DNA of 64,000 bases from Escherichia coli (GTDB lineage: Bacteria > Pseudomonadota > Gammaproteobacteria > Enterobacterales > Enterobacteriaceae): assembly GCF_024502345.1 (NCBI RefSeq), contig NZ_JALDNN010000003.1. One strand, written 5' to 3'. Of the stretch, positions 52,809 through 53,021 are shown piece by piece (within the stretch, counting starts at the first letter, position 1; each line of letters opens with the position of its first letter). The notes under the pieces were generated by a model that worked only from the letters and a program-made list of their open reading frames with translations, ran no database searches and was not told where the DNA came from. A program made the translations under genes and the position numbers.

Positions 52809-53021
52809 ATGTCCGAAACTAAGCAGGCGTATTTAATGAAATTTCGTAAGTGCTCTTCTTTCGACACACTGGAAAAAGTATTCGAACGACTCTGTGAAAA
52901 AAATGCAGGTATAGCATCACTGGAAATTTCCGGGGCATATGACCATCGAAAAGCTGAACTGACAATGAAGAAACTCTACGATAAAGTACCCGCAAGCGTA
53001 TGGACACTGGTCCGTCAGTAA
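52809..53021 (+). CDS. hha: Hha/YmoA-family nucleoid-associated modulator
   Basis: MSETKQAYLMKFRKCSSFDTLEKVFE...AYDHRKAELTMKKLYDKVPASVWTLV parallels Hha [29 protein letters not shown]...[26 protein letters not shown]; start set at the ATG after the SD AAGG. Confidence 0.65.
   Translation: MSETKQAYLMKFRKCSSFDTLEKVFERLCEKNAGIASLEISGAYDHRKAELTMKKLYDKVPASVWTLVRQ

Follow-up and report, generated by a model that had tools for sequence, protein, structure and literature searches.

The question raised by this locus is whether a short open reading frame in AT-rich plasmid DNA encodes a genuine Hha-family modulator and, if so, in which regulatory circuit the protein takes part. The frame lies in a stretch of 64,000 nucleotides from an Escherichia coli assembly (RefSeq GCF_024502345.1, contig NZ_JALDNN010000003.1), which is called the window in the following. 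In the initial annotation, made from the letters alone, it had been read as a plasmid-borne Hha gene whose product would act together with H-NS in the thermoregulation of conjugation, and hairpin leaders on the same DNA had been drawn into a hypothesis of temperature-dependent control. The features concerned are collected in Table 1.

Table 1. Position of hha, its flanking features and the AN transfer operon in the window.
Feature	Position	Strand	Remarks
AN transfer operon (htdA, htdF, htdK, rsp/R0009, trhF, trhW, trhU, trhN)	6560..19092	+	Collinear with R27 at 99.8%; from annotations and ORFs
Tyrosine-type recombinase/integrase	51413..52594	-	Pfam Phage_integrase, E 3e-11; ATG start at 52594 according to the RefSeq length
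AT-rich divergent intergenic region, hha/recombinase	52595..52808		214 bp; presumed promoter/control region and plausible H-NS target
Shine-Dalgarno-like AAGG	52799..52802	+	6 nt 5' of the hha ATG; putative, from the sequence
hha CDS	52809..53021	+	70 aa plus TAA; corresponds to R27 ORF R0182 and RefSeq WP_001324690.1
AT-rich spacer 3' of hha	53022..53182		161 bp, GC 0.30
218-aa ORF	53183-53839	+	Signal-peptide-like N-terminus
357-aa CoiA_N protein	54119-55192	+	CoiA_N (competence protein CoiA N-terminal, zinc-ribbon-like), E 7e-7

When translated, the hha frame runs uninterrupted from the ATG at 52809-52811 to the TAA at 53019-53021. A longer product of 84 amino acids initiated at a TTG (52767) was considered as well and is unlikely, since three lines of evidence favour the ATG: in profile and structure-sequence alignments the homology to the Hha family begins at residue 4 of the ATG-started product, the RefSeq annotation has a length of 213 nt, and the DNA similarity to the IncHI2 ortholog reaches just 10 nt upstream of the ATG. 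When the window was searched with E. coli Hha by tblastn, hha was the only copy of the family.

The profile search suggested in the initial annotation was run with the product. It matches Pfam HHA (PF05321) over profile positions 1-56 of 57 with an E-value of 2.1e-19 and 69.9 bits, well above the gathering cutoff of 25 bits, so that the outcome named there as fatal, the lack of any match to the family, is eliminated. Together with the identity to R27 hha described below, this bears out the call of an Hha-family modulator gene on the plasmid, for which exact coordinates had been given. The protein consists of a single HHA domain (residues 10-65 of 70 amino acids) without a separate DNA-binding domain. 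Over its full length it matches the sequences of the solved Hha proteins of E. coli and Salmonella (1jw2, 4icg) with E-values of about 2e-15, Yersinia YmoA (2k5s) with 7e-15 and YdgT/Cnu (2jqt) with 8e-8. An AlphaFold2 model, calculated from a shallow alignment of five sequences, reached a pLDDT of 83.5 and has four helices (residues 5-13, 18-31, 35-59 and 62-69). The closest PDB structures to this model are the Hha chains 4icg_C, 4icg_D and 1jw2 (probability 1.00, TM 0.62-0.71).

The curated subfamily models place the protein apart from the chromosomal members of the family. It scores 71.8 bits against the NCBIfam chromosomal Hha subfamily (NF008191), below the curated cutoff of 90, and 42.4 bits against the YdgT/Cnu equivalog (NF007703), below the cutoff of 101; its identity to Hha, YmoA and YdgT is only 45-51%. 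By these scores it is a member of the Hha/YmoA family that belongs to a separate plasmid clade and is not an ortholog of chromosomal Hha. Matches in tblastn come from plasmids of Escherichia, Klebsiella, Salmonella, Enterobacter, Shigella, Citrobacter and similar genera, and the family has been described as confined to Enterobacteriaceae and their plasmids (PMC2686267). The identities in plasmid records are bimodal. There are 213 records at 99% or above, 64 at 95-99% and 1123 at 90-95%, the last being of the IncHI2 type, followed by 17 at 60-90% and 3583 below 60%. Plasmid records with an identical or near-identical protein thus number at least 277, and those with the 90% variant 1123. Judged by this distribution, the IncHI-type Hha is a discrete clade, with 90-100% identity within IncHI1 and IncHI2 and at most 60% to nearly all others.

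Within this clade the gene can be assigned to a particular plasmid. The coding sequence shows 0 differences in 210 nt to hha of R27, the ORF R0182 that carries this name in PMC7366339 and PMC4853401, and the 205 nt upstream of it show two. The R27 record NC_002305.1 has WP_001324690.1 at 159190..159402, and the protein accessions of the region are the same as in the window. A 4-kb query around hha retrieved 354 plasmid records, several of them 100% identical, in which the ORF is named "Hha/YmoA family nucleoid-associated regulatory protein" (WP_001324690.1). Beyond the gene itself, the stretches of the window that are collinear with R27 are 1-24072 (99.8%), 24073-36553 (99.9%) and 36548-42390 (99.7%) and, around hha, 51403-53274 (99.2%) and 53725-58407 (98.4%). 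From these alignments the window is an R27-type IncHI1 backbone with extra insertions, and the ORF is R27 hha itself. An IncHI2 origin (R478/pMAK1-like) is ruled out by the RefSeq protein accessions and the collinearity with R27, and further by the IncHI2 ortholog, whose identity is no more than 90% at the protein and 77% at the DNA level. The replicon labels of PLSDB for R27-like plasmids have to be read with care; in its MOB-suite typing R27 itself is labelled only IncFIA, the R27-like relatives and pMAK1 are labelled IncHI1A, and the hha locus of pMAK1 is of the R27 type.

The insertions carry their own cargo. The segment 42391-51402, which R27 lacks, has IS26 (43784-44608) and IS1 (about 50558-51325) as its boundaries. 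It contains an Mla-like ABC transporter set (permease, ATPase, MlaD and lipoprotein), an L-serine ammonia-lyase gene and an ORF for a PLP enzyme that is cut short at the IS1. At 42706-42823 there is an IS3-family frameshift element (Rfam IS1222_FSE, 156.6 bits). Where the collinearity with R27 ends, a Tn7-like element is inserted (58408-64000) with tnsA, tnsB, tnsC and the start of tnsD, and in the identical relative NZ_LR890350.1 this element runs on into a heat-resistance locus (clpK, sHSP20, ftsH, yfdX1, yfdX2 and hdeD).

Comparison with the IncHI2 ortholog also bears on whether the frame is a functional gene. The 77% identical DNA differs at 38 synonymous and 11 non-synonymous positions, which gives a pS of 0.85, a pN of 0.066 and a pN/pS of 0.078, with synonymous change being saturated. 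At this ratio hha is under strong purifying selection. A frame of only 70 codons in an AT-rich region beside IS elements could be spurious or decaying and without function; for the present ORF this reading is practically excluded by the pN/pS with saturated synonymous change, by the 277 or more plasmid records that have the protein and by the transcripts measured for the gene in R27 (PMC7366339). Its nucleotide identity to R27 hha and the pN/pS against IncHI2 confirm that the ORF is a real gene and not a product of chance.

The surroundings of hha are conserved as well. Upstream, the gene is divergent from the recombinase gene, and this arrangement is annotated alike in R27, pMAK1 and the IncHI2 plasmid pSAL4614-1. 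The region between the two genes is inferred to be the control region of hha: its GC content is 0.356 (52604-52808) compared to 0.456 for the whole window. Promoter prediction found no consensus sigma-70 site for hha on the + strand of this spacer. No intrinsic terminator was predicted in the spacer behind the gene. In this spacer lies a small hydrophobic ORF of 44 codons (53074-53208, +) with the strong Shine-Dalgarno sequence AAAGGAG; being not alignable to IncHI2, it is probably not a gene. The 218-aa ORF has no match to a Pfam family and is missing from IncHI2; in R27 and pMAK1 an IS1-RepFIA-IS1 block interrupts it. The CoiA_N gene is the downstream neighbour of hha that is kept in both IncHI1 and IncHI2, with 70% DNA identity.

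This gene order speaks to a different function known from the chromosome. There, hha is co-transcribed with tomB (ybaJ) and the two are described as a toxin-antitoxin-like pair, and on this model the plasmid Hha would be the toxin half of a similar pair. For the plasmid gene such a role is very improbable: the 214-bp spacer contains no + strand ORF upstream of hha, where the neighbour is the divergent recombinase gene, and the ORFs downstream have no Pfam match to YbaJ/TomB.

How the protein is expected to work follows from the literature on the family. Hha, which has no DNA-binding domain, attaches to H-NS at its N-terminal domain; compared with H-NS alone, the complex silences AT-rich DNA of horizontal origin more tightly (PMC2686267). 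In Hha, the binding of H-NS strictly requires D48, and E25 is important for it (de Alba et al. 2011, summarised in PMC4519777). In an alignment of Hha, YmoA, YdgT and the IncHI2 Hha, E22, D45 and C15 of the plasmid protein correspond to E25, D48 and C18 of Hha and are invariant. Further invariant columns of the same alignment are H46 and R47 and, at the C-terminus, P61, V64 and W65.

These residues are also of importance for the idea that Hha regulates independently of H-NS-family proteins, for example by acting on the divergent recombinase gene. Chromosomal Hha has a small regulon that needs neither H-NS nor StpA (PMC4519777), the pairing of hha and recombinase is kept between IncHI1 and IncHI2, and in R27 both hha and the next ORF, R0183, which by gene order is presumably the recombinase, are about 2.4-fold higher at 37 °C. 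Against it stands that the protein, of 70 amino acids with one HHA domain, has no DNA-binding domain. In addition, the H-NS-contact residues are strictly conserved, which points to H-NS binding as the function under selection. We therefore regard regulation without H-NS as distinctly improbable and return to Hha as a partner of H-NS.

For R27 the partnership and its purpose have been described. Conjugation of R27 is promoted at 25 °C, whereas at 37 °C it is repressed and trhR/trhY are silenced by H-NS (PMC7366339). The AN operon, which the window contains, is part of this thermoregulated conjugation under the HtdA-TrhR/TrhY and H-NS/Hha circuit (PMC7366339). In PMC7366339, with reference to Forns et al. 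2005, the chromosomal and plasmid Hha and H-NS proteins are credited with the temperature control of R27, and binding of R27 Hha to the N-terminal domain of H-NS is reported second-hand. Co-repression of R27 conjugation by Hha and H-NS is cited again in bioRxiv 10.1101/2024.07.10.602937. The transcripts of R27 hha are 2.47-fold higher at 37 °C and the gene is relieved of repression in an htdA mutant (PMC7366339). The place of Hha/YmoA proteins and H-NS in the thermoregulation of IncHI plasmids, which the initial annotation had brought up, fits these data, as the gene is R27 hha and PMC7366339 describes repression of conjugation at the non-permissive temperature.

We consider it very probable that the ORF is the R27-type IncHI1 hha and encodes an H-NS-partner silencer that acts in thermoregulated conjugation. 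In the proposed mechanism the small four-helix protein would dock on the N-terminal dimerisation domain of H-NS-family proteins, the partner being either host H-NS or the plasmid's own H-NS paralog encoded outside the window. The H-NS/Hha nucleoprotein filaments would then silence AT-rich acquired DNA more tightly than H-NS alone. As an outcome, the conjugative transfer genes would be repressed at 37 °C and relieved at 25-30 °C, jointly with the HtdA-TrhR/TrhY circuit. Both the partnership with H-NS and the role in thermoregulated conjugation are documented for R27 Hha in the literature; the present analysis contributes the identity, family, H-NS-contact residue conservation, purifying selection and synteny of the gene.

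Concerning the partner, a tblastn search of the window for an H-NS paralog gave nothing credible, the best hit (E 0.59) lying within the Tn7-like element and being due to chance. In close relatives, the distance between hha and the R27-type hns paralog is 10.5 kb (R27), about 10 kb (pMAK1) or 38.6 kb (NZ_CP029729.1); the paralog is 99.8% identical in relatives and is present at 95% identity or above in 184 records. As no H-NS gene lies within the window, a plasmid-borne H-NS partner is putative for the replicon in hand, where it would be expected beyond the Tn7-like insertion; if it were missing, the plasmid Hha would have to rely on host H-NS.

A further function, compatible with the control of conjugation, would be that of a "stealth" factor. 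Here, Hha would top up the pool of the host, so that about 200 kb of AT-rich DNA do not titrate H-NS and Hha away from chromosomal islands; the benefit would be a lower fitness cost of carriage, with the control of conjugation being secondary. Such a role has been described for Sfh, the H-NS paralog of R27-like plasmids (PMC7074111), and horizontally acquired DNA is the main target of Hha-type proteins (PMC2686267). In line with it, hha belongs to a conserved, non-tra part of the backbone shared by IncHI1 and IncHI2, and most non-tra genes of R27 including hha show higher expression at 37 °C. On the other hand, a single deletion of R0182 leaves the stability of R27 in E. coli MG1655 unaffected (PMC4853401), stability not being the same as fitness cost, and the literature that names R27 hha ties the gene to the control of conjugation. 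We take this additional function to be possible, yet on the doubtful side.

The remaining part of the initial hypothesis concerned the hairpin leaders. The region around the hha start (52700-52850) folds at -23.4 kcal/mol with a z-score of 0.17, no better than shuffled sequence. No notable inverted repeats flank the gene, the longest ones nearby being short and AT-rich. In the whole window no Rfam thermometer or sRNA was found at gathering thresholds, the only match being the IS3-family frameshift element. When both strands were folded in sliding windows of 80 nt, the strongest structure was found at 29741-29820, 23 kb from hha and just upstream of a toprim-domain gene. With the leader of hha unstructured and the strongest hairpin this far off, a coupling of hha to the hairpin leaders is unsupported. 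The control by Hha and H-NS acts at the level of transcription on AT-rich duplex DNA and needs no RNA hairpin (PMC2686267). Of the temperature-control hypothesis, one half holds, as temperature control of the plasmid is real and published; the half that concerns the hairpins is unsupported.

The strongest hairpin (29741-29823, +) is an imperfect one of roughly 30 bp with a folding energy of -48.1 kcal/mol and a z-score of -8.0. It embeds a GAGAAA and an AUG, for which the predicted pairing is at least 0.998 at 25-42 °C and 0.98 at 70 °C, and for the hairpin a pairing above 99% is predicted between 25 and 55 °C. Since in the thermodynamic model the pairing persists across 25-70 °C, the hairpin cannot be a thermometer of the melting type. 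It is accompanied by a small GC hairpin at 29720-29740, the site lying between a gene for 73 amino acids and the toprim-domain gene. The latter has a conserved ATG start at 29829, with the Shine-Dalgarno sequence AAGAGAG paired in the lower stem, and the longer start annotated in RefSeq lies inside the hairpin. The core of the hairpin is present in about 1970 records of IncHI-type plasmids (IncHI1, IncHI2, Klebsiella HI1B and HI5) with 85-100% identity, above that of the flanking genes, and both arms are conserved in sequence with little covariation. The hairpin could serve as an RNase III site, as a block of translation, as a single-strand DNA initiation or promoter site, or as a palindrome bound by protein.

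Two further stem-loops were noted. At 19091-19120, directly after trhN, a GC stem stands between A-runs and T-runs like a bidirectional terminator, and at 26143-26170 a GC stem followed by a T-run lies between a gene for 89 amino acids and a DUF3150 gene. The two resemble intrinsic terminators more than leaders with a regulatory function.

Gene, family and role can already be found in the RefSeq annotation and in the literature, and the established picture of IncHI transfer control is unchanged by its identification here. The use of hha is that of an anchor, which marks the window as part of an R27-type IncHI1 resistance plasmid and maps a well-studied regulator on it. In IncHI plasmids, which disseminate multidrug resistance, transfer is shut down at body temperature, and Hha and H-NS belong to this switch. 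More speculatively, the IncHI Hha, with its diverged surface of helices 2 and 3, may have co-evolved with the plasmid H-NS paralog into a private silencing pair, or hha may share a temperature-responsive control region with the divergent recombinase gene. We think this unlikely, but a shared control region would couple recombination or resolution to temperature.

Of the known systems, YdgT/Cnu (2jqt) shares with the protein the family and presumably the H-NS/StpA-binding role, at a sequence identity of 45%. Chromosomal Hha of E. coli and Salmonella (1jw2, 2mw2, 4icg) and YmoA (2k5s) have the same Pfam family, length and four-helix fold, and the C-terminal motif LYDKVPxSVW is kept in the plasmid protein together with the equivalents of E25, D48 and C18. 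It differs from them by an identity of 48-51%, by divergent helices 2-3 (residues 27-44) and by an extra Cys29, and unlike chromosomal hha the plasmid gene has no tomB upstream. The IncHI2 ortholog (WP_001285422.1 of pSAL4614-1, with an R478-type backbone) is embedded in the same order of genes, namely tus, two hypothetical genes, the recombinase (-), hha (+) and the CoiA_N-domain protein. However, the promoter region of hha is not alignable between the two, and the 218-aa ORF that separates hha from the CoiA_N gene in the window is absent there. The differences from R27 concern the neighbourhood: the IS1-RepFIA-IS1 block cuts the ORF after hha in R27 whereas this ORF is intact in the window, and the window has the IS26/IS1-bounded insertion 1.4 kb upstream of hha and the Tn7-like element 5.4 kb downstream. 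The coding sequence, the protein, the divergent recombinase neighbour and a near-identical upstream region are common to both.
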